Program-made: the position numbers and the translations under genes | Notes under the pieces: generated by a model | What the model saw: the letters and a program-made list of their open reading frames with translations, nothing else | Database searches by the model: none | What the model was told of the DNA's origin: nothing | Assembly: GCA_016745075.1 (NCBI GenBank) | Contig: JADGDD010000008.1 | Span: 10,678 to 74,677 of the forward strand | Source of the DNA: Planctomycetota bacterium | GTDB taxonomy: Bacteria > Planctomycetota > UBA11346 | DNA: 64,000 nucleotides | Reading direction: 5' to 3' | In this document: positions 3,627 to 24,080 of the stretch, one piece after another | Layout of the letters: every line of letters starts with the position of its first letter | How positions within the stretch are numbered: the first letter of the stretch is position 1

Positions 3627-3882
3627 TGGTTCTTTTTTCCTCTGACAATATCCCGTCGTGCAAGCTATCGGCTAGGGCAACATGGTACAAAACACCTCTG
3701 TACGTAGGGTTCGTATGCCAACTGGTTATACATAGGCTGTTTTCAATCGGTCATCTCTTCTCCTCAACTTGCGCACCAAAGCCGTTCTTATAAGGTCTTG
3801 GTTTTCCACCACCTGTAACGATGTGCCTATGGCCTACCGTTACATTACTCTTGGTAGAGAGTCCTACCGAACGGAGACATCT

Positions 3883-6913: not shown

Positions 6914-6916
6914 AAT

Positions 6917-7894: not shown

Positions 7895-8697
7895 TGTTCA
7901 TGCCCTACTGCTTGCCCAATAAGCTTCTCTCGCCATGAATTGTTTATCTCATATGGCTGCGCATAGGTATTGCCCGCCTGATCTTCTCCACGTGCAAGGT
8001 AAATGCGAAAGTCGGGATCATTTTCGTGTTGCGTAAAATGACAATCCGCAGAAAAATATCTGAGCGTTAATCCACAACGACGAATCATACTCGTATTGGG
8101 ATTACTGCCATGAATAATTCGGCCATCATGAATAGAACAATGGTTCGGATCTAATTCAAAAGCAACAGCACTATCTTTATCAAAACTACCAGCATCAATT
8201 TCTTCAGCAAAAACCGCATCATCCTTTACAAGGTGATAATTATGATCTGCAAGCAGGTGACTACCTGGGATAACCTGCAAGCACCCATTTTCTTTGAGAG
8301 ACGGGTCTAAAGCCAGCCACACCGTACAGACCGAATCCATACGGTCCAGCATACCAGCCCAATACGCACTATCTTCATGCCATGGAATACGCCGACCCGT
8401 ACCTGCTGGTTTGGTGATGAAATGGGTAGTAAATAGAACAATATTTGGGCCAATCAATTGCTCTACCATATCTAAAACCGTATCATGCAATGCCCACCTG
8501 AATAATTCAGGGAAAAGAAAATGTGGTTTATCCATTTCTTCTGGACGGCCATTATAGATCTCTTTCCATTCTGTAGCGATAGATTCATGATAGCACTGTA
8601 AATCAGTAAAATCTTGCTCAGATAATAATGGTGCTGTTGGTACTATATAACCTTGTTTTTTATAGGCAGCACACTCAGCGGCAGATAAAATTGCCAT
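7891..8697 (-). CDS. Phytanoyl-CoA dioxygenase (PhyH) family Fe(II)/2-oxoglutarate-dependent oxygenase
   Basis: PWHEDSAYW (HxD iron ligands) and a downstream His in IIHGSNPN; ATG at 8697 preceded by AAGGAG (the listed ORF begins at an in-frame TTG at 8700). Confidence 0.75.
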   Translation of the reverse strand: MAILSAAECAAYKKQGYIVPTAPLLSEQDFTDLQCYHESIATEWKEIYNGRPEEMDKPHFLFPELFRWALHDTVLDMVEQLIGPNIVLFTTHFITKPAGTGRRIPWHEDSAYWAGMLDRMDSVCTVWLALDPSLKENGCLQVIPGSHLLADHNYHLVKDDAVFAEEIDAGSFDKDSAVAFELDPNHCSIHDGRIIHGSNPNTSMIRRCGLTLRYFSADCHFTQHENDPDFRIYLARGEDQAGNTYAQPYEINNSWREKLIGQAVGHEQ

Positions 8698-8826
8698 CAA
8701 ATCTCCTTTTCTTCTCTCATCATTATATGAGCCGATAAAAGGGAAATCCTGTCATATTGTGATGAAAAACGACCCTCTTGTGATGTTTGCTTGCCATTTT
8801 AACCTTCCGCACTATCTTTTCGTGAT

Positions 8827-9666
8827 ATGTCCATGCAATTATTTTGGGATGACATCTGCGAACACAGCCCTGGGAATATGCTCCGCTGTGCTCAAGGTTA
8901 TTACACACCTGGATACCGTTTTCAGCAGCACTATCATGACTTTGCTGAATTCTTTCTCATCACAGAGGGTGAAGGTTATCATTACTGCGATGGCCATCGA
9001 TCTCCCTTACGAGCATCTTCCTGCTGCTTTATTCACCCAGATTGTGAACATTCTCTGACCGCTTCTGAAGAGAGCAGCATGTCCATCATCAACGTGGCCA
9101 TAGCTCCTCAATTATGGACCCATATTCACGATCTCTATTTTGATACTGCACAAGACTGGTTTTGGAGCCGCTCCAAAGGTTGTTCTGTTCATCACGTTCC
9201 CGAACAGGCTCGGCGGTCATTTATGGATGCAGTCACTGAATTAGAACAAGACCACTCAAGTCGCCTAGCAGAAGATGCGCTCCTTTTGCATTTTATCAAT
9301 ACGTTCACCACGACCACCACACAAACAAATAGCAATAAAGCACCACAATGGCTACAAGAACTACTGCTGACCATGAACGAACCAAAATATTTCCAAGACA
9401 GCATGGAGGCTATGGTGCGCTTAAGCGAAAAAAGCAGAGAACATATTAATCGAAGTATTCGTACATACTATCAACAAACGGCCACTGAATATATGAATGG
9501 ATTACGCATGCGCTATTCCTGCCGTCGCTTGCTTGAAAGCACTGATAGCATCATGAAGATTGCTCTTGATTGCGGATTTGAATCTCAAGCCCATTTTTTT
9601 CGCCTCTTTAAAAAGACACACCACTGCACGCCACGACAATTTAGAATGACTCGTAAAGTTCTCTAA
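8827..9666 (+). CDS. AraC family transcriptional regulator (cupin-like N-domain plus C-terminal AraC HTH)
   Basis: C-terminal SCRRLLESTDSIMKIALDCGFESQAHFFRLFKKTHHCTPRQFR is a typical AraC-type HTH pair; divergent from the PhyH-NHL-GRE operon. Confidence 0.8.
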   Translation: MSMQLFWDDICEHSPGNMLRCAQGYYTPGYRFQQHYHDFAEFFLITEGEGYHYCDGHRSPLRASSCCFIHPDCEHSLTASEESSMSIINVAIAPQLWTHIHDLYFDTAQDWFWSRSKGCSVHHVPEQARRSFMDAVTELEQDHSSRLAEDALLLHFINTFTTTTTQTNSNKAPQWLQELLLTMNEPKYFQDSMEAMVRLSEKSREHINRSIRTYYQQTATEYMNGLRMRYSCRRLLESTDSIMKIALDCGFESQAHFFRLFKKTHHCTPRQFRMTRKVL

Positions 9667-9721: not shown

Positions 9722-12700
9722 ATGCGTATTCTTACTCTCCTCTTTTTTCTCTGCGGATTATGCTCAGCTTCCGATTGGCCGATGCTCCTGCATGACATTC
9801 AACGAAGTGGCATCAGTGAAGAACAGCCAACATTTCCGTTACACCATAACTGGAGCTATCAACCACTACAGGCTCCAGTACCAGCATGGGACAAACCAGC
9901 TTTACAAGATTATTTTAATGGATTTTCTTCCATACACCACGCACAAGCTTTTAACCGCGCCTACCACAGTATCTGCGCAAATAATAAAGTTTTCTTTGCA
10001 TCGTCTGCTAATGATAGCGTTGTCTGCCTTGATGCTGCCAGTGGCAAAACATTGTGGGTAGCACTCACCAGTGGGCCTATTCGTCTACCACCAACCTTCC
10101 ATAAAGGCTCACTGTACTGTGGTTCTGATGATGGTTTTGTCTACTGCTTTGATGCTAACACTGGAGCACTCTTATGGCGTTCCTGTCCAAGTGCGACCAT
10201 TCTGGCGCAACGCCCCGCTTATTTGCCAGGCAATAAGCGCATTATTTCTCGCATGCCCGTGCGCACTGGTTTTATTATTGATACAGAACAACAAACGATT
10301 TATGGCCAATGTGGTTTATTCCCAGAAGAGAAGGTTATTGCCTTTCAACTTGATCTCAACACCGGAGCAGTTGTGAGCTCCACTCAGGCCAACGCCGCGG
10401 AAGGATCAGTAACACGTATTGGTGATGAAATCTATGCCTCACGTGGACGGAAAAGTTTTATGATTTCTGATAGAACAGGTAAAGAGGTTTTTAAAAGTAA
10501 TAAAACAAAAGGAGCAGGTGTTACCTCTGGCTACGGCACTCTTGCTCTTACTGGCGGTAATGAGCGGAAAGAGCTTATGCTCTTTGATACAGAGAATAAA
10601 AAAATACTTGCTATGTGTACAGGCCTACGCGGTTTATTACTGAAAGACACACTGTATCTCATAGATGGAGCAACCATACAATCTTACAAAATCGCTGATC
10701 TCATACGTTTCCATAAAGAATATAATGACGCTCTCAACGGACCAATTAAACTCACGTGGTCTGATAAAAGCGAGTTGAAAGCGCAACGCAATCTCCAAAT
10801 AGAAAATGCTGTTCTCTGGAAACAACCCTGCACTTCCACCACTGCACTTATTGCCTGCGGATCGACCATCATTACCGGAGCTCCACAGCACATCACGGCG
10901 TTCGACAGCAATACGGGAGCCGTACTCTGGGAGCAACAGGTAGACGGAACCCCCTATTCTCTCGCTTTTTCTCATGGACGTTTATTCGCAAGCATGGACA
11001 ACGGCCATACACTGTGCTTTTCAGCTCAGGATCAAGATCATATTCTTCAAACAGAACAACACGATATAACCGCATTTTCTCCTGTAGATTCCATACAGCA
11101 GTATACCACGAATATCATCAAAGAATCTCCACAGAGCAAAGGATATTGTGTTATTGTCAACCCGAGCACTTGTGAAATAGCTTATGATATTGCCACCCGT
11201 TCTGATATGCATGTACTTTGTCTCATCGATGATGAAGAAGCCTGCTTAACAGCTCAACAACAATTATTGCCGACCGGCTTATATGGCACTCGCATTCACT
11301 ACCTACGCGGATCACTGTCTACTGTTCATATTCAAGATTACATCGCCACGGTTATTGTTAGTGAACAAGCCCTCAGTGATGAGATAGAATCAGAAGCACT
11401 TCGTATTGTTCGCCCAGAAGGTGGAGTCATCTTATGCTTTAATACAAGCACTCCTGCAAACGATAATTGGACCCAACACTCGGATAAAAATATATCATAC
11501 AGCCGTTACCAACGAGGCACACTTGCTGACACAGGAAACTGGAGTCATGCCTATGGTGGACCAGAGGCCACCAGTTGCAGTAATGATGATACCGTTCATG
11601 GACAATTTGAACTGCAATGGTTTGGTGCGCCTGGCCCTGAAAAAATGAATGACCGCCATCACCGCCCAATGCCACCATTGTATGCTCAAGGAAAAATGTT
11701 TGTACTTGGAAATGAGTACCTTTACGGCGTTGATGCATACAATGGAACCATACTTTGGGAACGCCCCGTCCCTGGTTCACGCCGACTTGGTATTATGTAC
11801 GATACAGCCCCAATGATAGCGCATGATCACAGTCTTTTCCTTTCAATCGGAACATCTTGCATTCAGATAGATGCCAACACTGGGGCCACACAACAAGAAT
11901 TTACGCCGCCGCAGACGAATTCCTCCTGGGGGTTTGTTGACCGTTATCAACAACTCCTACTTGGCAGCAGCCAACACAGCAATGCCAGTCTGACAAAAGT
12001 TGGAAAAATCAATAAACTCATGGAGGCAGATAATAGACTTGTTGCCGTAAGCACTCATCTATTTGCCCTTGATCTCAAACATGCAACAAAGAAATGGGAT
12101 CATAATTCAGGGCTTATCGTTAATTCAACTATTGTTCGCAGCGCAAATACGCTCTGCTTTTTAGAATCACGAAATCCAGAGCTGATAACAACAGATGCTG
12201 GTAGATTTGAACTCAATCAACTTGCAGAAAATGCTTCTCTGTATTTTGTAGCTCTGGATATAGAAAACGGACAGGTGCTCTGGGAAAAACAGACCAATCT
12301 TCCTTACAATAATGTGTTCTTTCTGCAAATCGCCAATGATACCCTGCTCGCCAGCGGCTCATATAACCAAGACAAACGTCGTCACTATGGCATGAGTGCT
12401 CTTTCACTGACTGATGGCAGCACGCGTTGGTCTTCCAATTTTGATGAAGGGAAAAAAGGTGGATCACATGGCGAACAATGGCAACACCCTGCTATTGTTG
12501 GCGAAAACATTTATCTGATGCATCACATTATCAGCCTCACAACTGGTACACGTAGCCAAGAGGGTGAAGGTGGCAGGAAATGGCGCAAAGGACATGGCTG
12601 CGGTACTATTTCCATGTCTAACAATGCCATATTTTACCGTGGCCAATGTATTACTGACCTACAAACGTGGAACCAAGAACGCATCTTCCGCGGCAATAAA

Positions 12701-12826
12701 CCAGGCTGCTGGATCAACCTTATTCCCGCAGGTGGCCTCTTGCTGATGCCGGAAGCCAGTGCTGGTTGCTCTTGCTCTGTACAAGTGCAAACGTCTATGG
12801 CATTGCGACCAGTGGGTCACAAATAA
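9722..12826 (+). CDS. Secreted PQQ-like beta-propeller repeat protein (BamB/PQQ-repeat family), ~1034 aa, multi-domain
   Basis: N-terminal signal peptide MRILTLLFFLCGLCSA; recurring propeller motifs (DG.VYCFDANTGALLW, ITAFDSNTGAVLWE, LYGVDAYNGTILWE); central degenerate Rossmann-like segment; paralog of 27528-30551. Confidence 0.65.
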   Translation: MRILTLLFFLCGLCSASDWPMLLHDIQRSGISEEQPTFPLHHNWSYQPLQAPVPAWDKPALQDYFNGFSSIHHAQAFNRAYHSICANNKVFFASSANDSVVCLDAASGKTLWVALTSGPIRLPPTFHKGSLYCGSDDGFVYCFDANTGALLWRSCPSATILAQRPAYLPGNKRIISRMPVRTGFIIDTEQQTIYGQCGLFPEEKVIAFQLDLNTGAVVSSTQANAAEGSVTRIGDEIYASRGRKSFMISDRTGKEVFKSNKTKGAGVTSGYGTLALTGGNERKELMLFDTENKKILAMCTGLRGLLLKDTLYLIDGATIQSYKIADLIRFHKEYNDALNGPIKLTWSDKSELKAQRNLQIENAVLWKQPCTSTTALIACGSTIITGAPQHITAFDSNTGAVLWEQQVDGTPYSLAFSHGRLFASMDNGHTLCFSAQDQDHILQTEQHDITAFSPVDSIQQYTTNIIKESPQSKGYCVIVNPSTCEIAYDIATRSDMHVLCLIDDEEACLTAQQQLLPTGLYGTRIHYLRGSLSTVHIQDYIATVIVSEQALSDEIESEALRIVRPEGGVILCFNTSTPANDNWTQHSDKNISYSRYQRGTLADTGNWSHAYGGPEATSCSNDDTVHGQFELQWFGAPGPEKMNDRHHRPMPPLYAQGKMFVLGNEYLYGVDAYNGTILWERPVPGSRRLGIMYDTAPMIAHDHSLFLSIGTSCIQIDANTGATQQEFTPPQTNSSWGFVDRYQQLLLGSSQHSNASLTKVGKINKLMEADNRLVAVSTHLFALDLKHATKKWDHNSGLIVNSTIVRSANTLCFLESRNPELITTDAGRFELNQLAENASLYFVALDIENGQVLWEKQTNLPYNNVFFLQIANDTLLASGSYNQDKRRHYGMSALSLTDGSTRWSSNFDEGKKGGSHGEQWQHPAIVGENIYLMHHIISLTTGTRSQEGEGGRKWRKGHGCGTISMSNNAIFYRGQCITDLQTWNQERIFRGNKPGCWINLIPAGGLLLMPEASAGCSCSVQVQTSMALRPVGHK

Positions 12827-12978: not shown

Positions 12979-14853
12979 ATGACCGATATGATGAACGCAC
13001 TCAAGGAAGGCTGGGGCTATGATAGCTTTCGGCCTTTGCAGAAAGATGCAGTGGAAGCTGCGCTTTCTGGAACTGATTGCCTCGTCATTTTACCTACTGG
13101 TGGCGGGAAAAGCCTCTGTTATCAGTTACCGGCTGCCTGTGGTATCGGCCTTGTCATGGTCGTATCTCCACTGATTGCCTTAATGGATGACCAAGTTGCA
13201 TCTGCACGTGATTCCGGCATTATTGCCGCTGCCTTGCATTCCAACTTGCCTGCTGCTGAAAAACACAGTGCTATGCAAGCCATTAGCGATGGCAGCCTGC
13301 AATTACTCTACATTAGCCCAGAACGTTTATCGCTTGGTGATATTATTGGTCAAATTTCTGACCGTCTTGGTTTAATTGCCGTAGATGAAGCCCACTGTAT
13401 TTCGCATTGGGGTCATGACTTCCGACCTGAATACCGGATGCTGGCACAAATATTTAATCGCGTACCCACCGTTCCGCGTATGGCCCTTACCGCCACCGCT
13501 ACTCCACATGTGCAACGTGATATTTGTGTGCAAGTGCCGCTACGTGATGAAATCCATTTATTGGGCCATCCAGATCGCCCCAATTTAATTTACCGCGCCT
13601 TGCCAAGAAAAAATGCTATTAAACAAATGATGTCCATCATAGAACGACACCCCAATGAAGGTGGTATTGTCTATGCACAAACTCGCAAAGAGGTAGAGCG
13701 TATTACCTCCTCTCTTGATGGTCATGGTGTTGGTTGTGCTGGCTATCATGCAGGCATGCCTGCACGCACGCGACAAAAAGTTCAAATGGATTTCGTCAAT
13801 GAGCGCGTTGATGTCGTTGTTGCCACCATTGCTTTTGGCATGGGTATAGATCGCTCCAATGTACGCTACGTTATTCACGCAAATTACCCGCGCAGTATTG
13901 AACATTACCAACAAGAATCTGGACGGGCTGGACGTGATGGCTTAAATGCCGAATGCGTGTTACTGCATAGCTACGCCGATATTGTGATGCACCGTCGTCT
14001 CTCCACTATGGACGGGCCGCTCAGCCCCGAACGACAGCAAGCTTTAGATCAGCAGTTATCTGGAGTAACTCGTTACGCAAGCTCTCCAGTCTGCCGTCAT
14101 CGTCTACTGACTGAACACTTTGGTGAAACGTATTCCATTCCTGAAGGTAATGATTTACAAAAGGGTTGTGGCGCTTGTGATGTATGTCTTGCGGAAACCA
14201 TTGAGCTAGACGCAACAGAAGCTGTTGAAGTTGCCCAAAAAATAATATCCGCAGTCTGGCGTTGCCAAAATCGTTTTGGTGCTGGACACGTTACGGACGT
14301 ATTGATTGGTCGAGATACCGAAAAAATTCGCCGCGCCCAACATGATGAGCTCTCTGTCTTTGGATTACTACGCTTAGAGGGCGATACCTCCGTGCGGTTC
14401 TGGATAGACCAGCTCATCATGCAAGATTTACTCACCGTTATTCCGAATGATGGCTACCCGCTGCTGGCTATTTCCGAACAAGGTAAAGCACTCTGTAAAG
14501 GTGATGGCAGCGTCCGTCTTGGCCAAGTGCAAAAACCAACGAAAAAGAAAAAGTCCAGCGCTGGCAAAGCCCCCGCCGACAACAGCGTGGAGTGGGAAGA
14601 CGTGGACCGCGAACTCTACGAACAACTCCGCGACCTACGCAAATACATCGCCGAAGACATCAACAAACCACCATATATTATTTTCTCCGATGCTTCTCTC
14701 CGCGACATGGCCCGCGAACTACCAGCCAATCGCATAGACATGCTTGCCGTCAAAGGTGTGGGGGATCACAAACTCGAAAAATACGGAGCATCTTTTCTCG
14801 CCTGTATCTCCGGCGAATCTGTTGAAGAAGCGTTTGAGATATTTAAGGCATAA
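12979..14853 (+). CDS. recQ: ATP-dependent DNA helicase RecQ
   Basis: Walker A ILPTGGGKSLCYQLPA, DEAH box LIAVDEAHCISHWGHDFRPEY, Zn-binding/RQC region, C-terminal HRDC domain. Confidence 0.9.
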   Translation: MTDMMNALKEGWGYDSFRPLQKDAVEAALSGTDCLVILPTGGGKSLCYQLPAACGIGLVMVVSPLIALMDDQVASARDSGIIAAALHSNLPAAEKHSAMQAISDGSLQLLYISPERLSLGDIIGQISDRLGLIAVDEAHCISHWGHDFRPEYRMLAQIFNRVPTVPRMALTATATPHVQRDICVQVPLRDEIHLLGHPDRPNLIYRALPRKNAIKQMMSIIERHPNEGGIVYAQTRKEVERITSSLDGHGVGCAGYHAGMPARTRQKVQMDFVNERVDVVVATIAFGMGIDRSNVRYVIHANYPRSIEHYQQESGRAGRDGLNAECVLLHSYADIVMHRRLSTMDGPLSPERQQALDQQLSGVTRYASSPVCRHRLLTEHFGETYSIPEGNDLQKGCGACDVCLAETIELDATEAVEVAQKIISAVWRCQNRFGAGHVTDVLIGRDTEKIRRAQHDELSVFGLLRLEGDTSVRFWIDQLIMQDLLTVIPNDGYPLLAISEQGKALCKGDGSVRLGQVQKPTKKKKSSAGKAPADNSVEWEDVDRELYEQLRDLRKYIAEDINKPPYIIFSDASLRDMARELPANRIDMLAVKGVGDHKLEKYGASFLACISGESVEEAFEIFKA

Positions 14854-14887
14854 GAAAAACAAAAGAAACACTCCCATGCCGTTTGTT

Positions 14888-15766
14888 TTACAGAGACGAC
14901 ACTTGCAATTGTTGGCGATAGGACTTTGGCGTTTGCCCCACTTCTTTTTTGAAGATCCGAGAAAAATAATTACTGTCATTGAAACCACTCGCAAAAGCGA
15001 TCTTGGTAATACTGTCATTCGTTGTGGTTAATAATGCTTTTGCATGATTAAGACGTAAGCGATTCAGGTACATAATGGGGGTCACACCATAGTCTGATTT
15101 GAAACGACGAATAAATTGATTAACAGATAAATGAGCTGCATCTGCTAACTCCGCCAAAGAAATATCTCTGCTGTATTCGCTTTCAAGGAGGGCAACGCTT
15201 TCTGCTAAAGCCATTAACGGGTTTGCCTCTGAATTTTCTTCTGAAAAGATACTACAAAGTTCAACAATTAACCGTTGCATCGCAGCAACTTTCCTTGCCT
15301 GAGGTGCTTGCGTGTGCCGAATAGGTTCAGTGAGATCGACACAGAGCGGCTTGATCATTTTCAATTGTTGAGCACTTAGTCTTAAACGATTATAATTACG
15401 TTCCTGTTCTCGATACACTGGCTCCAAAATAAAAAGCGCATGATAACCAGACAATGCAGTAAGATCATAGGTGTGTGCTTGTAACCACGTTGGTAAAAAC
15501 ATGCAGTTAATGATTTCCATATCCCGTGAATGGGCAAAGCCATGTACTTGCCCTGGCGCTATTGCAAAAACATCTCCGGCAGCAATCGGCACTAGGCCCC
15601 ACTCCGTTTGATGTTGGCCACTACCACGACAAACGATAACCAATTCGCTAAAATCATGGCGGTGAATGGGGTAATCATCACGCGGAAAACGCCAAAAGGA
15701 AGCTTGCACCGGAGCTGCTGGATGAAGCCCCTGTTTCTCTAAAGCAATAGTCGGAATCTGATGCAT
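14888..15766 (-). CDS. AraC family transcriptional regulator (cupin plus HTH)
   Basis: C-terminal LSVNQFIRRFKSDYGVTPIMYLNRLRLNHAKALL...ITKIAFASGFNDSNYFSRIFKKEVGQTP; divergent from the PhyH/URO-D-like operon. Confidence 0.85.
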   Translation of the reverse strand: MHQIPTIALEKQGLHPAAPVQASFWRFPRDDYPIHRHDFSELVIVCRGSGQHQTEWGLVPIAAGDVFAIAPGQVHGFAHSRDMEIINCMFLPTWLQAHTYDLTALSGYHALFILEPVYREQERNYNRLRLSAQQLKMIKPLCVDLTEPIRHTQAPQARKVAAMQRLIVELCSIFSEENSEANPLMALAESVALLESEYSRDISLAELADAAHLSVNQFIRRFKSDYGVTPIMYLNRLRLNHAKALLTTTNDSITKIAFASGFNDSNYFSRIFKKEVGQTPKSYRQQLQVSSL

Positions 15767-15864
15767 GGTGATATTATGCTAAAGAATGGTGACAAGGTCA
15801 AGGCTCAGCATCATCAACACTATAGACTCTTAGAATAAACATACGATAAAATAAAGGAATTTAC

Positions 15865-16620
15865 ATGCCAGCACTCACGAAAGCTCAGATAACGGATTAC
15901 CATGAACATGGTTTTGTTATGCTGGGAAAAATTATGGATGATGCAACCTTAGATGTCATTCGCTCAGAAGAGCAGAGGCTCATGGCAACCGTTGGTTCTG
16001 CCCATGATGAAGATCTTGCTAACCGCAGTGTCTTCATTTCTTTATGCCACCATCATAGTGCTGCGTTTCGTAACGTTGCCACGCAAGGGCCACACCTTGA
16101 TGCGGTAGAACAAATTGTTGGCGAAGACTTCTTACTATGGTACACGCAGTTTGTTATAAAACATCCAGACACGGGGGATGCTAAGAGTGAGTTTCCGTGG
16201 CATCAAGATAATGGCTATGGCGCAATTACTCCCGATAATAACGTAACAGTTTGGATTGCTCTTGATGACGTGACCGAAGAAAACGGATGCGTATGGGTTG
16301 TGCCCGGCAGTCATAAACAGGGGCTACTTGACCATCAGAAAAAAAATGACTCATGGCATTTACATTTAGACGTCGAGACCGATGGTATTCCTGCCATTAT
16401 GAAAGCAGGCGAAGCGGTGATGTTTAGTGGATTAACCCTGCACCGTTCAAAATTAAATCACACGAATGCTCCACGCCGCGCTATGTTTATGGAATACGCA
16501 CATGCCAGTAGTCACTTAATTGAAGATCAGCAAGCACTTATCCATAAATCTCACACATGGATGGTACGTGGACAATTGCCCCTAGACATTCCCAATCAAG
16601 CACCGGAGACACAATCATGA
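15865..16620 (+). CDS. Phytanoyl-CoA dioxygenase (PhyH) family Fe(II)/2OG oxygenase
   Basis: FPWHQDNGYG (HxD), VVPGSHKQG, GLTLHRS; RBS AAGGAA upstream of ATG 15865. Confidence 0.75.
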   Translation: MPALTKAQITDYHEHGFVMLGKIMDDATLDVIRSEEQRLMATVGSAHDEDLANRSVFISLCHHHSAAFRNVATQGPHLDAVEQIVGEDFLLWYTQFVIKHPDTGDAKSEFPWHQDNGYGAITPDNNVTVWIALDDVTEENGCVWVVPGSHKQGLLDHQKKNDSWHLHLDVETDGIPAIMKAGEAVMFSGLTLHRSKLNHTNAPRRAMFMEYAHASSHLIEDQQALIHKSHTWMVRGQLPLDIPNQAPETQS

Positions 16621-17678
16621 CATGCACTCAAACACCCGTTGAGGAGATGCAAAAACGTATTCTCCATGCTTACGACCATCCAGATGAGCAAGCCTGTTTT
16701 TATAGTGGTAATGTAGAACGCACCGGTAGTACCCGCTTAGATCATCTACCCTATTGGGACTGGAGTTGCCAACCTGCCCGCTCTGTCCCAAGCAATACGA
16801 CTTGCCTTTTTCCACTCGCACTGAATTGCCCACAAATACACACCACCGAAGGGAAACTATGGGTCAATCCAATTTTTGAAGACGAGGACGAAGAAGATTT
16901 TATTCTGGAACTGCCAGATATACGTAGCGGTTTTGGCGACACCATTTTACAAGAAATGGCGACAATGGCTCGTGATTTACCCGCGGGTGAAACCATACGT
17001 GAAGTTGATATTCAATCCTCACTGGGCATTGCTGAACTCGTCTGTGGGCAAAATTTGTATATAGCCTTACTAGAAGAACCTGAAGCCATCAAAAAAATGC
17101 TCACACGCATTACTGATTTCGTTATTGATTTTGTTCACGAAATGCGCCGTGTTTGTGGACCACGTTTAAACGGTGCAGGCTTTCCTTTTATTTGGTCAGA
17201 CCAACACAGCACGCTTGTCAGTGATGATACACTGACCTTAGTTTCTCCACAGCAACATCTGGAATTTAGTCTCCCGTACGTGAATCAATTTGCTGATGCC
17301 TGCGGCCCCATTCATTACCATTCTTGCTCATGGTATGAACGCTTTTTTGATAATATTAAACAAGTCCGTAATGTCCGCACCTATAATTGGAATACCGGTA
17401 ACAGCGACGATCCACATCATATTATTCGAGAGTTTTCTGGACGAGCTGTACTCGCGCCACACATCTGTAAAGATATGCATCTCAGCAACGATGTTGCTCG
17501 TTGGGGCCATTCTTTCTCCGACGAAGTAGATCTACTCAGCTATGTGTTAGATGGCATGCTCGATAATACCAGCTTTCATTTCTGGCTTGGTGAATTTGAT
17601 GAGAAGCCAGATGTACTTGAACGGATGTATGATATTTTGCATGAACGAGGGTACTCACCACAAGCACAACTCGGCTAA
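16617..17678 (+). CDS. Uroporphyrinogen decarboxylase (URO-D)-like family protein, function unknown
   Basis: Fold-level similarity to URO-D/MtaA-like proteins and to the paralog at 46534-47562; ATG 16617 overlaps the PhyH stop (ATGA) with GGAG 8 nt upstream, so the listed start at 16557 is rejected. Confidence 0.55.
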   Translation: MTCTQTPVEEMQKRILHAYDHPDEQACFYSGNVERTGSTRLDHLPYWDWSCQPARSVPSNTTCLFPLALNCPQIHTTEGKLWVNPIFEDEDEEDFILELPDIRSGFGDTILQEMATMARDLPAGETIREVDIQSSLGIAELVCGQNLYIALLEEPEAIKKMLTRITDFVIDFVHEMRRVCGPRLNGAGFPFIWSDQHSTLVSDDTLTLVSPQQHLEFSLPYVNQFADACGPIHYHSCSWYERFFDNIKQVRNVRTYNWNTGNSDDPHHIIREFSGRAVLAPHICKDMHLSNDVARWGHSFSDEVDLLSYVLDGMLDNTSFHFWLGEFDEKPDVLERMYDILHERGYSPQAQLG

Positions 17679-17721
17679 TATTATCCATTCACTTTCCTTG
17701 GCAGGCCATAGGGTCTAAAAC

Positions 17722-18546
17722 ATGGATATATCTGTCATTTTTACGACCTACAATCAGCCACGCTGGCTGGAGCTCGTGCTCTGGGGTTTTTCTATCCAGA
17801 GCCACAGTGATTTTGAGATTGTCATTGCTGATGATGGCTCCAAGCCAGAAACCGCTGCCCTCATTGCAGATATTCAGAAAAAAACAGCACTCACCATCCA
17901 ACATATTTGGCATGAAGACAATGGCTTTCAGAAATGTAGTATTCTGAACAAAGCCATTGTTGCGGCCAAACATGATTACTTGGTTTTTACTGATGGCGAT
18001 TGTATTCCTCATCCTGATTTTTTAAAAACACATAACAAACATGCTCAAAAAAATGCATTCCTCTCTGGCGGCTACTTCAAATTGCCGCAAGACATAAGTG
18101 AGGCTATTACCATTGATGAAGTACTCCAAGGCTTACCCTGTTCCCCTGCGTGGCTGCGCAGCAACGGCATGTCTTGGACCCCAAAAATGTTAAAGCTACA
18201 GGCCAAAGGGGCCTCATCATCTCTACTAGATATGCTGACAACCACCCGCCCAACGTGGAATGGCCATAATGCTTCCACATGGAAAGAATACGCGCTAGCG
18301 ATAAATGGTTTTGACGAGCGTATGCAATATGGCGGCCAAGATCGAGAATTTGGTGAGCGCCTTGAAAACATTGGCGTACGCGGCAAACAAATTCGACACA
18401 AAGCATGTTGTGTACATCTACACCATAAACGTGGTTATGCGACACCTGAGAGTATTGCCAAAAATAAAGCGATACGCGCAGACACGGTTTCGCAAAAAAT
18501 AACGAAAACGGAACATGGCATCGAACAGATGCTCACCGCTCCATAA
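17722..18546 (+). CDS. Glycosyltransferase family 2
   Basis: N-terminal ISVIFTTYNQPRWLE...FEIVIADDGS...VFTDGDCIP (GT2 DxD-type motifs). Confidence 0.75.
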   Translation: MDISVIFTTYNQPRWLELVLWGFSIQSHSDFEIVIADDGSKPETAALIADIQKKTALTIQHIWHEDNGFQKCSILNKAIVAAKHDYLVFTDGDCIPHPDFLKTHNKHAQKNAFLSGGYFKLPQDISEAITIDEVLQGLPCSPAWLRSNGMSWTPKMLKLQAKGASSSLLDMLTTTRPTWNGHNASTWKEYALAINGFDERMQYGGQDREFGERLENIGVRGKQIRHKACCVHLHHKRGYATPESIAKNKAIRADTVSQKITKTEHGIEQMLTAP

Positions 18547-18552
18547 ACAATA

Positions 18553-19599
18553 TTAGAGGTAGAGGCTCTCCCACTGCTCAATAACCTGTGCAGCAGATAC
18601 GGCTTCTAAGGTATTTGCTGCTGCCCACGCCTCTGGTCCTGGCGCACAGGCTTCAATACTTGTTTGCGCAGCAATCAGCACAGGGCTTGTTTCTGCACGT
18701 GGGCAGAATAAACGCGGATCTGTCTGGCCAAATAAAACCAACAGAGGACAGCCAACCGCAGCCGCAATATGGGCAGGGCCTGTATCAACACTCACACAAC
18801 AATCAGCCATTTCCATTACAGCCAACAGGCGGCGAATCGGCAACTGATCAGCAACGGAAATGACCTGCGGCAACTGCACCTGCGCCGCCAAAGATTCTGT
18901 ATACTCTTGTTCTGGTGGCGCACCACAAAGTAGCACAACGGCATCTGGGTTACTTAAGACCATATGACGCATCACCTGTACCCAGCGCTCATCTGGCCAA
19001 AACTTGACATTGCTAGACCGGTCTCGGGCACCCGCTCTCATGGTTTTTTTATTACCTGGCTGAATTAAAATAATAGGTCGGTCTTGCCAGCCATTCTTCT
19101 CCAACCAAGCACGACACTCTCTGCGTTCTTCTTCACTCACAACTAATTGGGTGCCAGTGACCGAACACGGAGGCCAAGCTGTCTTAACCGTCTCTTTAAG
19201 AGCCAAACGTTGCCAATGCTCTATAGTATGTTCATCCTGATGGCGCTCATCGACCAAAGAATCTACCGCATCTTGTTTGAGGTCATAGCCAGCCCGTTCT
19301 AACAAACGGTAGACTTTGGGCATTTCTTCCAACACCCACACGGGACTGTTCCCACGTTCTTTGAGAGATGTGACCAACTGTTTCTGTTCACTACTCAAAA
19401 GATATGGCGTTTTTCGAGAACCAATCACATAGACATCTCGAACCCACGGGCAATTGGCATAGAGTACCTTGGTCCACGCCCCAGAGCCAACCACATCACA
19501 TGGCTCCCCGCTACGCTCTGCGAGCATACGCAAAAGCGGCGTTAACATCACCATGTCTCCAAGCGCACCAAAGCGCACTACTAGGGGGTTGTTCGGCAT
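18553..19599 (-). CDS. Glycosyltransferase family 9 (LPS heptosyltransferase-like)
   Basis: N-terminal RFGALGDMVMLTPLLRML and overall GT9 organisation. Confidence 0.75.
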   Translation of the reverse strand: MPNNPLVVRFGALGDMVMLTPLLRMLAERSGEPCDVVGSGAWTKVLYANCPWVRDVYVIGSRKTPYLLSSEQKQLVTSLKERGNSPVWVLEEMPKVYRLLERAGYDLKQDAVDSLVDERHQDEHTIEHWQRLALKETVKTAWPPCSVTGTQLVVSEEERRECRAWLEKNGWQDRPIILIQPGNKKTMRAGARDRSSNVKFWPDERWVQVMRHMVLSNPDAVVLLCGAPPEQEYTESLAAQVQLPQVISVADQLPIRRLLAVMEMADCCVSVDTGPAHIAAAVGCPLLVLFGQTDPRLFCPRAETSPVLIAAQTSIEACAPGPEAWAAANTLEAVSAAQVIEQWESLYL

Positions 19600-19799
19600 T
19601 CTTTCGGCCTCCGCTTTTGTCTGGGCGCACTCTAGCGGCTCCTCCAGCTTTTCCAGTGCAAGTCAGAGCGCAGCCTTGCCTTATGAGTAGTCAGCTCATG
19701 ATGAGCAGCCATTCAAAACCATGATTTTTACTGGTGTTGAGCCATACCTGCCCAGCATTCAGACTATAAACGATTCCCACGAACAGCAAAGAATACCCT

Positions 19800-20939
19800 A
19801 TGACTCGAGACATTGCACCAGATAAAAAGCTCCTCTTCAAAGTCCATATGCCAAAATCGGTAGATGGCCCCTTGCTAGAAACTTTACATAGCGGCTTTAT
19901 TGGCCAAGGCACCAAAGTTGACGAATTTGAAGAAAAACTTCGTGCTTACTTCAACCATGAACATGTAGTTACCGTGAACTCTGGTACTTCTGCTCTCCAA
20001 TTGGCACTTCGTCTCGCCAATGTTGGTCCTGGCGATGAAGTCATCTCAACTCCTATGACTTGTACGGCCACCAATATGCCCGTTCTCGCTATGGGGGCAA
20101 AACTGGTCTGGGCAGACAGCAATCCTGTAACCGGCTTGATTGATGCGGAATCTATTCGTTCTAAAATTACAGAAAAAACAAAAGCCATTATTATGGTACA
20201 TTTTGGCGGATTGCCTTGTGATATTGATGGCATTAATGCCCTCGCACAAGAACATCAGATCAAAACAATTGAAGATGGTGCACACGCCTTTGGCGTTTCC
20301 TACAAAGGTAAAAAAGTAGGCTGCCATTCTGATTTTGTTATGTTCTCTTTACAAGCAATTAAACATATCACCACCATAGATGGCGGACTCTTATTCTGCA
20401 AGAATGCAGAAGATTACAAACGTGCTGTACTCTTACGTTGGTACGGCATTGATAGAAATGCCAAACGCAAAGAATTCCGTTGCGAAGAAAATATTGCTGA
20501 ATTTGGTTATAAATTTCATATGAATGATATTTGTGCAGTCATTGGCATAGAGCAATTAAAATATGTTGATGATTTACTGCAACGCCACCGTGATAATCAA
20601 CTCTTTTATGATGAGCGCCTCAAAGCGATTCCTGGCATTCAACTCATACCCAAACCATCAGACATCGTCTCATGCCCGTGGTTATATGTCTTACATGTCA
20701 CCGATGGCAGACGTAATGATTTTATGGCATGGATGGATACACAAAACGTTATGGCCTCCCGCGTACATGAACGCAACGATATCCACGATGCCTTCGCTGA
20801 AAGCAACTGTCAACTGCCTGGTGTTGATACATTTAATGCCAGCCAAGTTTCTATTCCGGTTGGCTGGTGGATTACCGACGACGACCGTGCCTATATTGCG
20901 GATAAAATAGAAGAGTTCTCGCAAACTTTCGTCCAATAA
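19800..20939 (+). CDS. DegT/DnrJ/EryC1/StrS family PLP-dependent sugar aminotransferase
   Basis: GDEVISTPMTCTATNMP...KTKAIIMVHFGGLPCDIDGI...IEDGAHAFG...FSLQAIKHITTIDGG with the PLP lysine present. Confidence 0.85.
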   Translation: MTRDIAPDKKLLFKVHMPKSVDGPLLETLHSGFIGQGTKVDEFEEKLRAYFNHEHVVTVNSGTSALQLALRLANVGPGDEVISTPMTCTATNMPVLAMGAKLVWADSNPVTGLIDAESIRSKITEKTKAIIMVHFGGLPCDIDGINALAQEHQIKTIEDGAHAFGVSYKGKKVGCHSDFVMFSLQAIKHITTIDGGLLFCKNAEDYKRAVLLRWYGIDRNAKRKEFRCEENIAEFGYKFHMNDICAVIGIEQLKYVDDLLQRHRDNQLFYDERLKAIPGIQLIPKPSDIVSCPWLYVLHVTDGRRNDFMAWMDTQNVMASRVHERNDIHDAFAESNCQLPGVDTFNASQVSIPVGWWITDDDRAYIADKIEEFSQTFVQ

Positions 20940-20968
20940 GTTCTCTCTAGCCACACAAGGTTCCCGCC

Positions 20969-21778
20969 ATGTCCATGCAACATATTATTATTACTCGTTT
21001 CAATATTCCGATGGTGGAACACACCGAAGATAAAAACGGTCAGAAAACACAGACTGATGCATGGATGGAAGAACGTTTTGCCCTGTTTGAAAAATTCTGC
21101 ATGCCGTCTATCATGGCACAGACCAACCAGAACTTTCAATGGGTGGTATTATTTGGCGCACATACCAGCCAACAATGGCGAGACCACATTACAGCAATAG
21201 AAGAACGCTATGATCGATTTACACCACTCTTTATGGATCACCCCAATATTGCTGAACCAATTAATGAGCTCGTTACTGATACCACCAAAAAAGTGCTCAC
21301 AACTCGTTTAGATAACGATGATGCGCTTCATAAAGAATATGTTGAAGTTATTCAGAAAAATGCTGAGTCCAAACAAGACAATTGTTTTCTGCTGTTCCGT
21401 TTTGGCTATTCCTTTAATGGAGAAATGGCAGTTGTTCGTTCACACAAATACAACCCCTTTAGTACTTTTATTGAATGCATTAACGATGAGAGAGCACCCA
21501 TTCAAACGGCTTATTGCAGCAGACATGGCCGCACCCATGAGGTAGCGCCTCTGCATTACATTAAAGAACGCCCTTTTTGGCTGGTTGGCATTCACGATAG
21601 AAACGCGGTTAATTTACACGTTGGGGAGACCAGAGATTATTCACTAAGCAAACCCAAAGATGTGCTCAAACTTATTCGTAATAGATATCTTCGCCCACTG
21701 CGTAGGTATTTTTGGCCAAAAGCTTACAGACAAACCTATACCTTAGCAGACATTCAAAAAGAATTTGGTGTGAAATAA
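20969..21778 (+). CDS. Putative glycosyltransferase (rhamnosyltransferase-like family)
   Basis: N-terminal HIIITRFNIP... resembles the putative rhamnosyltransferase family; placement inside a glycosylation cluster; weak assignment. Confidence 0.45.
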   Translation: MSMQHIIITRFNIPMVEHTEDKNGQKTQTDAWMEERFALFEKFCMPSIMAQTNQNFQWVVLFGAHTSQQWRDHITAIEERYDRFTPLFMDHPNIAEPINELVTDTTKKVLTTRLDNDDALHKEYVEVIQKNAESKQDNCFLLFRFGYSFNGEMAVVRSHKYNPFSTFIECINDERAPIQTAYCSRHGRTHEVAPLHYIKERPFWLVGIHDRNAVNLHVGETRDYSLSKPKDVLKLIRNRYLRPLRRYFWPKAYRQTYTLADIQKEFGVK

Positions 21779-21800
21779 AAGAACTGACTCAGACGTTCAT

Positions 21801-22709
21801 TTACCCACGTCTATTCTTTCGCCACAATCGCGCTACATGGCGACGGTCTGAGGGAATGCGTTGTAAAGCTGGAAGGCGACGGTAATTGACTCCGCCATCT
21901 GCGAGCACCACTTCTAAACCAAGCTCCCAAGCAATACGCAACGTTTCGTAAGACCAATCTCCTCCGCGACCAAAAGGCGCTGCAAAGACAGGGATATATC
22001 CGGGCAAATCTTGCAGAGCTGTTTGATCATCACGTAAAGCCTGCTGTTGCCACTGTGCAGATTTATGGATAAAACGTTCATGGTCACGACCATGCAACCC
22101 AACATGAAATACATGACTATCTAATTGGCTCAATGCTTCGTAAGAAAGAAAGCGGCTCGTGCCAAGCGACACTCCTGCCACCAACGCTTCTATTTTCTGG
22201 GTGCCATCACGATAAAACTCCGCATCGTCACAATGACGCAGATCTCGTGAAAGCTGCTCATATTCTGGAGTCCACAATTTCTGTAACGTTGAATCTGGAT
22301 GCTGCCGTAAAGCTTGTGCTATCGTAATCCAAACGGCATAAGGCTGGTTAAAAACACCACTATTCACAAATAATGTTGCCGGTATCTGCTGTTGCTGTAG
22401 CCACGGCAAAGCTTGTTCCGCTATGCTGTTATCTCCATCATCAAAGGTCAATACAGCATAATTACGGTCTAATGGCCCAGTACGCAATCGTTCTATCGCC
22501 TCTATCAAAGAAATAATAGGCATACGGCTGTGAAGAAAGCGCACACTGGCAGTAAATGTTTTTTGAGAAGTCCATGTCTCACGCGTATGTCGCTGTGGAC
22601 AAAAAGATTCACTGACTTGATGATAATTATAGACAGCTACATGAGGCCTGCCGTGTAAAGCCCGAGTAATGGCACCGGGGATTTTTTGTATTTCTCTAGC
22701 AATACTCAT
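21801..22709 (-). CDS. Polysaccharide deacetylase (NodB-like) family protein
   Basis: YAVLTFDDGDNSIAEQALPWLQQQQIPATLFVNSG; ATG overlaps the upstream GT4 stop (ATGA). Confidence 0.7.
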   Translation of the reverse strand: MSIAREIQKIPGAITRALHGRPHVAVYNYHQVSESFCPQRHTRETWTSQKTFTASVRFLHSRMPIISLIEAIERLRTGPLDRNYAVLTFDDGDNSIAEQALPWLQQQQIPATLFVNSGVFNQPYAVWITIAQALRQHPDSTLQKLWTPEYEQLSRDLRHCDDAEFYRDGTQKIEALVAGVSLGTSRFLSYEALSQLDSHVFHVGLHGRDHERFIHKSAQWQQQALRDDQTALQDLPGYIPVFAAPFGRGGDWSYETLRIAWELGLEVVLADGGVNYRRLPALQRIPSDRRHVARLWRKNRRG

Positions 22710-23872
22710 GACCGCACCAATTCATCATACAGTGCTTCTAAGGTTTTGCATTGCGTCTGAATATTAAAATATTCTTCCATACGTTGCCGCCCTTGCTGCC
22801 CAAACGTCATTCGTAGATGCACATCTGAAAGCATGTCATCTAAGCAACGGGTTAAATCTTTGGAGTCATTTTTCTTCGCCAACAAACCAGTACGTTGATC
22901 TTGAATCACTTCACCAATTCCACCACAGTCATAAGCGACCACGGGAAGCCCTGAAGCTGACGCTTCAGCACAAGCAAGAGACAAAGCTTCTTCTGCACCA
23001 GTGTCCATTACCCGAGATGGCACACAGGACACATCTGCTTCCTGAACAACTTTACGTACTTCTTCTGGTGGTAATAATCCGTAAAATGTGCACCGATCAG
23101 CTAAAGGGGCAGCCTGCTCTTCAAGCGCCTGCCGACTGGGGCCATCCCCAACGATATGATACTGCCAGTCTGGATATTTTTGAGACAACTCGATTGCTGC
23201 TCGTAATAAATCTTGGCAGCCCTTCTGTTCGTTTAATCGGCCAACAAAAACAACCCGTGGTGGATGATCTGTTTTATGAACTGCGGGTGTAAAGAGCGAG
23301 GTATCCAAACCAATATAATGGACTCGCACAGATGATTCGTCAGCGCCACCCGCTATGAGTTTTTTTTGCACAAATGCAGACACTGCCAACACGGGTGATT
23401 TTCGCTCAAATAACCGACGACGCGCACGCCCATATTGTGCGTTACTAGATTGAATCGTGATATCACTACCATGAAAGGTTGTCAGCAAGGGAACATCAAG
23501 CGCATCTGCCAGAGCCAGAGCTGGTGCAGCACTCCAACCAAAGTGGGCATGCACTAATTGCGGTTGATAAGCCCGCACCTTTTTCAACCATGCTGGAGGA
23601 ATCTTTCCAAAAACTCGTAAATAGATTTGTTGCAATAAAGAACAGCAGCCAGACTCAGACAAACAACAGGTATCCAAGCCATCCAATAAATGAGCACCAC
23701 TACGATCATAGGTGTAACCCGCCAATACTGCCCGCCAGTTTTCTAAATGACGAACTTGGCTGGCAATAAATGTTTCCGAGGCAGGCAACAAACGCTTACG
23801 AAACACCGCCACACAGGGTTTTCTCTCTGAGTCAGATTCTGTCGCAGTAAATGTTGATGAAGAGGCCGTCAT
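22706..23872 (-). CDS. Glycosyltransferase family 4 (GT-B fold)
   Basis: VVFVGRLNEQKGCQDL...SRVMDTGAEEALSLACAEASASGLPVVAYDCGGIGEVI; start moved to the in-frame ATG at 23872 (listed ORF begins 23971). Confidence 0.8.
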   Translation of the reverse strand: MTASSSTFTATESDSERKPCVAVFRKRLLPASETFIASQVRHLENWRAVLAGYTYDRSGAHLLDGLDTCCLSESGCCSLLQQIYLRVFGKIPPAWLKKVRAYQPQLVHAHFGWSAAPALALADALDVPLLTTFHGSDITIQSSNAQYGRARRRLFERKSPVLAVSAFVQKKLIAGGADESSVRVHYIGLDTSLFTPAVHKTDHPPRVVFVGRLNEQKGCQDLLRAAIELSQKYPDWQYHIVGDGPSRQALEEQAAPLADRCTFYGLLPPEEVRKVVQEADVSCVPSRVMDTGAEEALSLACAEASASGLPVVAYDCGGIGEVIQDQRTGLLAKKNDSKDLTRCLDDMLSDVHLRMTFGQQGRQRMEEYFNIQTQCKTLEALYDELVRS

Positions 23873-24080
23873 ACGTTCATGGAATACTTGCAGCTCTACC
23901 CATTGGCGCAACGCCCTGTTTTTGCAACCCTCTCCCACACCATCCAAAAACAACCGAACAGAAGGAGTCAAAACTCAAGCAAAACCAAAAGACAAACGAA
24001 CAGGCGGAGAGAAGGGGCCAAAGGCCCCGACCGACCGCCGAGATACGTTTTTGCTGATACAATGGGCAAAGCCCATCAGC

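Follow-up and report, generated by a model that had tools for sequence, protein, structure and literature searches.

What do a PhyH-family dioxygenase and a protein resembling uroporphyrinogen decarboxylase (URO-D) do together behind an AraC-type regulator? The question is raised by a locus in a stretch of 64,000 nucleotides (nt) of contig JADGDD010000008.1 from a Planctomycetota bacterium (assembly GCA_016745075.1), called the window below, whose genes AraC2, PhyH2 and URO-D-like protein are listed in Table 1. The reading we favor, with a probability of about one half, is that they form an inducible, AraC2-controlled cytoplasmic catabolic cassette that acts on a glycan-derived small molecule, and that the third gene is not one of heme biosynthesis. 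A first-pass annotation of the window had described an AraC gene divergent from a PhyH gene whose stop codon overlaps the start of the URO-D-like gene, and this was borne out down to the positions of the open reading frames (ORFs). AraC2 and PhyH2 are divergent, with a 98-bp intergenic region between them. The PhyH2 stop codon TGA (16618-16620) and the ATG of the URO-D-like gene (16617-16619) overlap as ATGA, and the Shine-Dalgarno sequence of this junction lies inside the 3' end of PhyH2, 8 nt 5' of the ATG. The ORF list offered an alternative upstream ATG for the URO-D-like gene at 16557, giving 373 amino acids (aa). Because homologs are 341 to 356 aa long, with alignments that begin at about residue 2 to 10 of the 353-aa form, and because the public gene calls for the same contig also give 353 aa, the start was placed at 16617. 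When the sequences of PhyH2 and the URO-D-like protein were read by eye, no obvious signal peptide was seen in either.

By sequence, the URO-D label is weak. The URO-D-like protein scored 19.6 bits against PF01208, below the Pfam cutoff of 23.9, and gave no match in an NCBIfam scan or in a phmmer search of the PDB; its profile matched the PDB only weakly, at HemE (E 1.2e-4). Its orthologs scored 28 to 42 bits, above the same cutoff, and the clade is therefore a marginal member of PF01208. An AlphaFold2 model built on an alignment of 72 homologs had a mean predicted local distance difference test score (pLDDT) of 96.4, and structure comparison confirmed a URO-D-type (beta/alpha)8 barrel, as the first-pass annotation had proposed, even with PF01208 itself sub-threshold. 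The best fold and profile matches were HemE structures, at 13 to 15% identity. Fold similarity to the coenzyme M (CoM) methyltransferase MtaA was also present, with about 13% identity in structural alignment, and neither phmmer nor hmmsearch matched the protein to MtaA 4ay7. A relationship to MetE was rejected, as no profile similarity to the MetE barrel was detectable (hhalign E 0.56).

The active site departs from that of HemE (PF01208, EC 4.1.1.37). Two signature patterns were checked on E. coli HemE, which matches both: PS00906 (P-x-W-x-M-R-Q-A-G-R, with the substrate-binding Arg pair) and PS00907 (G-F-..-P-[FYW]-T-..-Y, with the catalytic Tyr; G-F-x-x-x-P-W-T-x-x-x-Y in the HemE comparison). 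Neither pattern matched any of the 72 clade members in alignment A1, which comprises 72 of the homologs found and is the basis of the conservation counts given for this clade. RQAGR was found in none of them, its Arg-x-x-x-Arg motif being gone, and the equivalents of Arg37, Arg41 and Tyr164 are lost, with Leu141 at the position of the catalytic Tyr. The column equivalent to human Asp86 contains Ser, Thr, Asn or Gly and no Asp, as read from an ungapped hhalign extension just outside the confident alignment. The residues that the clade does keep are its own: all 72 members have H235 and C237, and H214 is found in 100%, followed by H288 (97%), H282 (96%) and C71 (96%), and the invariant set consists of D131, Q133, W82, W193, D203, D204, H214, Y234, H235, C237, N246, N257, W258 and D265. 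In the AlphaFold2 model, His235-x-Cys237 stands at the C-terminal end of the barrel strand formed by residues 232-236, at a site where HemE, according to the alignment, has F-T-K.

The best alignment to a partial sequence of MtaA 4ay7 placed YHSCT on LHICG, whose His-x-Cys we take to be zinc ligands of MtaA; it was not significant (hhalign E 0.18) and so gives positional support only. UroD-superfamily paralogs found beside PhyH2 orthologs keep H-C-C. His235 and Cys237 could form a metal site together with one or two of Cys71, His214, His282 and His288. Such a site would resemble the metal (zinc) site found in the MtaA/MetE branch of the superfamily and would be topologically analogous to the zinc sites on strands 6-8 of MetE and MtaA (PMC539065). 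Identity to MtaA, MtbA and MtsA and to the MT1 demethylases MtvB, OdmB, MtoB and CdmB is about 13%, below the limit of more than 25% identity to a characterized CoM methyltransferase by which MtaA-like proteins have been defined (PMC10418091), and the Cys of their PGCG motif is not conserved. The URO-D-like gene also differs from MtaA and MT1 systems in having no corrinoid protein, activase or second methyltransferase nearby, its partners being an O2-dependent dioxygenase and an AraC regulator. It differs from MetE, MetE-like single-barrel proteins and epoxyalkane:CoM transferase in its ligand spacing and in lacking a thiol-metabolism context. The first-pass annotation had considered that the catalytic residues either of decarboxylases or of MtaA-type methyltransferases might be retained. 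The protein has neither the decarboxylase signatures nor the full set of MtaA zinc ligands, and because these residues are missing and no corrinoid partner was found, neither option was confirmed.

Searches found 82 homologs of the URO-D-like protein, all at most 65% identical to it, in Pontiellaceae and other bacteria of the Planctomycetes-Verrucomicrobia-Chlamydiae (PVC) group, Bacteroidales, Chloroflexota and others. A profile search of 1.84 billion representative sequences returned 1372 at E<=1e-3, 515 at E<=1e-10 and 53 at E<=1e-30, and the clade proper comprises about 10 to 20 representatives. No informative domain fusions were seen, the long stop-to-stop ORFs at four loci (L014, L015, L020 and L021) containing only the URO-D domain. 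The literature searched contained no mention of this clade or of the PhyH/URO-D-like gene pair and gave superfamily background only: the UroD superfamily includes HemE, MetE, epoxide-CoM transferase and many corrinoid methyltransferases as well as 'uncharacterised clades' (PMC10418091, PMC13222342). The present clade is a variant within this known superfamily that is set apart by its active-site signature, lacks a corrinoid partner, occurs in a glycan-catabolic context and is recurrently associated with AraC and PhyH.

That context was determined by a Pfam scan of 120 neighbors lying within two genes of the URO-D-like gene at 37 ortholog loci; the counts are approximate because a crude longest-ORF gene caller was used and some shadow ORFs were included (e.g., at locus L001). 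The neighbors included 7 sulfatases, 5 right-handed beta-helix proteins (one with a sub-threshold match to the GH141 insertion domain), 3 glycoside hydrolases (GH) of family GH94, 2 of GH2 and 2 of GH123, and one each of GH1, GH39, GH106, GH10, GH63-like and apiosidase-like proteins, along with 7 AraC regulators, 3 GntR/LacI-type regulators and 8 other URO-D paralogs. A locus from Pontiellaceae had the order GH1/URO-D-like/GH94, accompanied by sulfatases, CE2 esterases and a second URO-D. Among the other annotated loci, one had beta-helix/URO-D-like/GH2 behind a GntR-LacI regulator and one had sulfatase/URO-D-like. An operon of overlapping genes from Limnocylindrales (Chloroflexota) encoded GH123-like, melibiase-like, PhyH2-like, GH39, URO-D-like, GH29 fucosidase, unknown and GH38 proteins, in that order. 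HemE belongs to the context of the heme pathway, whereas that of the URO-D-like clade is glycan degradation and AraC. No tetrapyrrole genes were found within 10 kb on either side in the window, and no tetrapyrrole families were among the 25 most frequent Pfam families of each neighbor set (65 and 54 families matched in all). Likewise, a search of the window within 10 kb on both sides and of nine further annotated contexts revealed no B12-binding corrinoid protein or activase. One locus (L023, 4429-13751), from a metagenome-assembled genome (MAG) of Candidatus Zipacnadum vermilionense, had the order URO-D/glycyl radical enzyme/URO-D-like ortholog/URO-D/MTTB-family methyltransferase homolog/GH20, and no corrinoid protein was among the genes scanned there, despite the MTTB homolog and two additional URO-D genes.

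Two side observations concern these neighborhoods. The trio of families seen in the window, with glycyl radical enzyme and UroD-like proteins and with MTTB replacing PhyH, recurs in the lineage of L023. In a Pontiellaceae MAG (L061), a more canonical PF01208 protein (13002-14084; 66.8 bits) is encoded between two sulfatase genes at the same locus as a URO-D-like ortholog, and UroD-superfamily genes seem to be a recurrent, unexplained part of sulfated-glycan loci in Kiritimatiellota.

The partners of the URO-D-like gene were not equally constant. At six Bacteroidales loci of the 39 ortholog loci compared, an AraC2-like gene (E 1e-41 to 1e-50) was divergent from and directly adjacent to the URO-D-like gene, without PhyH, and AraC2 orthologs are a more constant partner of the URO-D-like gene than PhyH is. 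In the best-supported reading, AraC2 and the URO-D-like gene make up the conserved core, to which PhyH2 has been added here and in a few other genomes; such an addition would be understandable if an O2-dependent step on the same family of substrates were contributed by the dioxygenase.

PhyH2 is a strong member of PF05721 (8.3e-36; 124.7 bits, cutoff 22). Its iron triad His113-x-Asp115...His193 is intact, and H113, D115, H193 and R204 are invariant in 57 orthologs. The closest solved relative by profile was human PHYH (E 1.6e-24), followed by SnoK, MysH, SnoN and EvdO2. PhyH2 thus shares with the Fe(II)/2-oxoglutarate oxygenases of this family (human PHYH; SnoK/SnoN, EvdO, MysH, EctD, PhnY*) the strong PF05721 match, the triad, with motifs that line up with those of human PHYH, and an alignment to PHYH from end to end. 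It belongs to none of the equivalogs, the best NCBIfam match scoring 68.5 bits against a cutoff of 500. Several members of the family act on sugars or small polar metabolites. The PhyH2 subfamily, at about 50% identity, is large and PVC-rich, with members in Opitutus, Phycisphaerae and Chthoniobacterales. In three annotated contexts of PhyH2 orthologs, a divergent AraC gene was upstream in all three and the downstream partners differed. In Opitutus sp. GAS368 (L065, LT629735.1), divergent AraC was followed by PhyH, an aldo-keto reductase, a creatininase-family amidohydrolase and a Zn-dependent alcohol dehydrogenase, with a GH31 gene and a LacI regulator adjoining. In a Phycisphaeraceae MAG, the gene that overlaps the PhyH stop encodes a 369-aa URO-D-superfamily protein, which has retained H-C-C and shares 25% identity with the URO-D-like protein of the window, and on an ENA contig that also carries a fucosidase a PhyH2 ortholog stands beside an unannotated 341-aa protein. 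Other downstream partners were sets of aldo-keto reductase, creatininase-like protein and alcohol dehydrogenase, GH39, a rhamnogalacturonase-like lectin protein and unknowns. As an observation in its own right, the AraC/PhyH/aldo-keto reductase/creatininase-family/Zn-dependent alcohol dehydrogenase set recurs at six loci (L065, L079, L086, L067, L071 and L096) and is another uncharacterized AraC-PhyH pathway, present in a cultured strain.

The frequency of the PhyH/URO-D pair was then counted from the PhyH side. From 80 metagenome loci, 24 ortholog loci remained after de-duplication and selection for enough downstream sequence, and these were compared with 24 loci of distant PhyH proteins (about 33% identity). 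A UroD-superfamily gene was directly downstream at 6 of the 24 PhyH2-ortholog loci versus none of the 24 distant loci (Fisher p = 0.022). Two further cases, L011 and L066, were both immediate overlaps. The UroD-superfamily partners of the subfamily belong, in separate lineages, to at least three divergent subclades (25% mutual identity). When URO-D-like orthologs were taken as the starting point, a PhyH2-like gene was nearby at only 2 of 39 loci. Pairs between this PhyH subfamily and the URO-D-like superclade therefore recur, with several divergent subclades taking part, but they are a minority arrangement. A separate feature of one metagenome contig (Ga0105046_10042230; L077, 771-5865) is that it carries two consecutive pairs of PhyH and distant UroD-like genes with a divergent AraC between them; these UroD-like partners are very divergent, H-x4-C replacing H-x-C.

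AraC2 matched HTH_18 (2e-25, 89.3 bits), HTH_AraC (3.7e-24, 84.8 bits) and AraC_binding (1.8e-10, 41.1 bits) in Pfam, all above the cutoff. Its best NCBIfam match was RhaS (NF010028), at 138.5 bits versus a cutoff of 288, which indicates a resemblance to RhaS/RhaR and not an equivalog. With the AraC protein divergent from a Bacteroidales URO-D-like ortholog, AraC2 shares a full-length identity of 33% (E 6e-57). With the RhaS/RhaR-type activators AraC2 shares the cupin sensor and double helix-turn-helix, the divergent arrangement, a candidate operator with 21-bp spacing and RhaS and RhaR as best NCBIfam matches; it differs in falling far below the equivalog cutoffs and in having a target operon without a classical sugar isomerase, kinase or aldolase. 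The candidate operator was found by a repeat search, with the TGCTA of its core at 15777-15781 and its first repeat copy overlapping the AraC2 start codon. When the region was aligned with six Bacteroidales AraC/URO-D-like intergenic regions (L024, L026, L028, L033, L035 and L038), TGCTA was invariant. The Bacteroidales regions have ATGTC-N16-ATGTC around it, also with a 21-bp spacing, for which the counterpart repeat in the window is ATGGTGA. A direct repeat spaced by 21 bp is the geometry expected of tandem half-sites of AraC-family regulators. The operator is put forward as a candidate because the motif is short and the sequences are few and partly related. The candidate promoter of the PhyH2 operon is weak, since such sites are no more common in the region than in shuffled sequences, and terminator-like matches were likewise no more common than in shuffles. 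No riboswitch, cobalamin riboswitches included, or other RNA element was found in 14000-20000. In the Bacteroidales regions, a TAnnTTTG -7 promoter motif was also seen upstream of the URO-D-like gene.

Taken together, the above-described results suggest the following scheme. AraC2, as a RhaS/RhaR-like activator with a cupin sensor, would bind the 21-bp-spaced direct repeat in the 98-bp region and switch on a two-gene operon, possibly read through into the GT2 glycosyltransferase gene. PhyH2 and the URO-D-like enzyme, presumably co-regulated, would be cytoplasmic and translated in coupled fashion via the ATGA overlap. The reaction of PhyH2 would be an O2-dependent hydroxylation or dealkylation. 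The UroD-fold enzyme would catalyze a metal-assisted step that needs no O2, either on the same compound or on its product, the order of the two reactions being conjectural. The substrate is most likely a small molecule of carbohydrate origin that is set free from a complex glycan in the cytoplasm, e.g., a substituted or methylated deoxy-sugar or a short oligosaccharide, because URO-D-like orthologs lie among glycoside hydrolases, sulfatases and sugar-type regulators and because of the Chloroflexota operon with PhyH, GH39, URO-D-like and GH29 genes. More speculatively, the fucosidase, GH39, GH141-like, GH106 and apiosidase-like neighbors and the RhaS-like regulator make a substituted (e.g., O-methylated) deoxy-sugar or pentose attractive. 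A still more specific proposal, to which we give a slim chance, is that the clade consists of metal-dependent, corrinoid-free UroD-fold enzymes that remove or relocate an O-methyl, other alkyl or acyl substituent on fucose-, xylose- or galactose-type sugars released from glycans; this would be an O2-independent counterpart of oxidative demethylation, teamed with PhyH under a sugar-sensing AraC regulator where O2 is available. If true, the cassette would define a previously unrecognized accessory step by which PVC bacteria, Bacteroidales and Chloroflexota break down glycans.

Several points weigh against a glycan-catabolic cassette with a metal-assisted URO-D-like enzyme. The distal Cys ligand of MtaA (PGCG near the C terminus) has no counterpart, there being no conserved Cys after residue 237 and the topological equivalents 325-326 being Ser/Gly and Asn; since the MtaA alignment was also not significant, metal binding is proposed tentatively. 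The contexts of URO-D-like orthologs are heterogeneous and some loci have no carbohydrate genes, so a housekeeping or other small-molecule role is possible. The two URO-D-like loci with a PhyH2-like gene nearby (L005 and L011) are few. The Fisher test is modest, and one of its six positives, L077, has marginal URO-D similarity (hhalign 92.5%, no Pfam match), that of L081 being solid at 99%. The promoter and operator are matches to a consensus or motif. Finally, the operon abuts a cluster for cell-envelope glycan biosynthesis with no predicted terminator between.

Four other explanations were weighed against the catabolic cassette. The first, which we regard as unlikely, is that the URO-D-like protein is a corrinoid-dependent methyltransferase, either an MT1 O-demethylase like MtvB, OdmB or MtoB or an MT2 protein like MtaA, whose corrinoid protein and activase are encoded elsewhere; under anaerobic conditions it would take off or transfer methyl groups, for example those of O-methyl sugars or methoxylated compounds, with PhyH2 as the O2-dependent route. 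It has to contend with the absence of a corrinoid protein or activase from about ten annotated contexts, the MTTB locus included, the lack of a cobalamin riboswitch, the low and nonsignificant similarity to MtaA and the missing distal Cys. Equally unlikely is that the adjacency has no functional meaning, the URO-D-like gene being the original target of AraC2 and PhyH2 an insertion between them, with unrelated substrates for the two enzymes. This would account for the scarcity of PhyH at URO-D-like loci, for the six loci where an AraC2-type gene is directly adjacent without PhyH and for the several alternative partners of PhyH2 orthologs. It fits poorly with the 4-nt overlap and its internal Shine-Dalgarno sequence, with the pairing of the subfamily with at least three UroD subclades in separate lineages, including the immediate overlaps at L011 and L066, with the operon in which PhyH and URO-D-like genes stand on either side of GH39 and with the 0 of 24 result for distant PhyH loci.

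The third alternative has a slimmer chance: PhyH2 and the URO-D-like protein would be tailoring enzymes of the adjacent envelope-glycan cluster, which resembles those for lipopolysaccharide (LPS) core or O antigen, and would modify a nucleotide sugar or lipid-linked glycan. The GT2 gene follows the URO-D-like stop by 43 nt on the same strand, no terminator-like site was predicted in the gap, and GT2 may be co-transcribed by read-through from the PhyH2 operon; genes for GT9, DegT aminotransferase, rhamnosyltransferase, deacetylase and GT4 proteins lie downstream, and the PhyH-family enzymes SnoK, SnoN and EvdO modify sugars in biosynthesis. However, none of 59 URO-D-like loci had a GT2 homolog nearby, so GT2 is not a conserved partner, and the neighbors there are mostly degradative enzymes. 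The downstream partners of the PhyH2 orthologs examined are not glycosyltransferases, and in Bacteroidales the AraC2/URO-D-like pair is conserved where there is no biosynthetic cluster. A divergent arrangement of a cupin-type AraC activator and its target is also typical of catabolic operons. That the URO-D-like ORF is an ordinary HemE of heme or siroheme biosynthesis has practically no chance. Its best fold and profile matches are HemE structures and some relatives are named 'uroporphyrinogen decarboxylase family protein' in databases, but the loss of both PROSITE signatures in 72 of 72 members and of the Arg37, Arg41 and Tyr164 equivalents, the sub-threshold PF01208 score, the lack of heme genes nearby and the low identity effectively refute it.

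The UroD superfamily is known for heme biosynthesis and for corrinoid- or zinc-dependent methyl transfer, and this clade, which occurs in glycan-degradation loci of bacteria specialized in complex and sulfated polysaccharides, fits neither. It is a well-delimited, testable, uncharacterized family rather than a surprise. Identification of its reaction could fill an accessory step that limits complete glycan breakdown, such as the removal of a nonglycosidic substituent, and would end the annotation of these genes as 'uroporphyrinogen decarboxylase'. AraC-PhyH heads that recur with exchangeable partners are a handle for finding related pathways.

Table 1. Features of the two AraC/PhyH modules and their surroundings, in window coordinates
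Feature	Position	Strand	Description
AraC2	14888-15766	-	292 aa; AraC/XylS-family regulator, N-terminal cupin (AraC_binding) sensor, C-terminal double helix-turn-helix; Pfam
Candidate AraC2 operator	15758-15792	.	Direct repeat CTGATGCATGGTGA / CTAAAGAATGGTGA, 21-bp spacing, flanking an ATGCTA core; repeat search
Sigma-70-like promoter candidate of PhyH2 operon	15823-15852	+	TAGACT-18-TAAAAT, 9/12 consensus matches
PhyH2	15865-16620	+	251 aa; PhyH-family Fe(II)/2-oxoglutarate dioxygenase; Pfam PF05721
Coupling junction	16605-16620	+	GGAG Shine-Dalgarno 16605-16608, ATGA 16617-16620; direct sequence reading
URO-D-like protein	16617-17678	+	353 aa; UroD-superfamily (beta/alpha)8 barrel, invariant His235-x-Cys237, without decarboxylase signatures
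GT2 glycosyltransferase	17722-18546	+	Pfam Glycos_transf_2, 3.1e-18; last gene on strand
AraC1	8827-9666	+	Divergent from PhyH1
PhyH1	7891-8700	-	PhyH dioxygenase
NHL-repeat protein	6917-7894	-	Downstream of PhyH1; Pfam
Glycyl radical enzyme	4559-6913	-	Downstream of NHL-repeat protein; Pfam/NCBIfam

The first-pass annotation had also pointed to two AraC/PhyH modules with different downstream partners within 10 kb. Both modules are real and stand about 6 to 7 kb apart in the window. Pairwise alignment, which had been suggested as a check, gave 34% identity over 162 aa for PhyH1 and PhyH2 (E 7e-18) and 24% for AraC1 and AraC2 (E 7e-17), and by these comparisons the proteins of the two modules are homologous but old, distant paralogs, related at no more than family level. 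A recent duplication of the modules was rejected, AraC2 being much closer to the Bacteroidales AraC protein than to AraC1. With the two PhyH proteins homologous and the third ORF having a URO-D fold, the first-pass description holds on both points. Its broader suggestion of a family of inducible oxidative modification pathways gained support from the AraC-PhyH heads with variable partners found elsewhere, a divergent AraC gene being usual at PhyH2-ortholog loci, and the words "oxidative modification" stay conjectural.

Module 1 (4559-8700) combines an O2-dependent PhyH protein, an NHL-repeat protein and an O2-sensitive glycyl radical enzyme in one tight operon, in which the PhyH1 and NHL genes overlap by 4 nt and the NHL and glycyl radical enzyme genes are 3 nt apart. 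The glycyl radical enzyme has RVGGF at residue 759 and GCGE at 431, and its best NCBIfam match was the PFL2/glycerol dehydratase family, far below every equivalog cutoff. No ORF of at least 180 aa with CxxxCxxC, as sought for a radical-SAM activase, was among the ORFs checked (861-4461 and 20969-63703). Adjoining the glycyl radical enzyme gene, the region 861-4461 encodes a hybrid sensor histidine kinase of 921 aa (4HB_MCP, PAS, HisKA, HATPase, receiver and Hpt domains) and a rubrerythrin (NF045767, 296 bits). The histidine kinase, rubrerythrin and glycyl radical enzyme point to life under anaerobic or microaerobic conditions, even though both PhyH genes encode O2-dependent enzymes.

On the other side of module 2, the LPS-core-like cluster (17722-23971) encodes the GT2 protein, a GT9 heptosyltransferase-like protein, a DegT aminotransferase, a rhamnosyltransferase-like protein, a polysaccharide deacetylase and a GT4 protein, followed by Fur and a malate/lactate dehydrogenase. 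The closest relatives of the RecQ protein encoded at 12979-14853 were about 60% identical in a collection of 5.8 billion proteins and were spread over Omnitrophota, Elusimicrobiota and Planctomycetota MAGs, and the window proteins that were looked up were all singleton clusters; the source organism belongs to a poorly sampled lineage without close database relatives. Two PQQ-like beta-propeller repeat proteins (PQQ_2, Beta-prop_ACSF4) are encoded in the window, one of 1007 aa at 27528-30551 on the minus strand and one of 1034 aa at 9722-12826 on the plus strand, directly downstream of AraC1.

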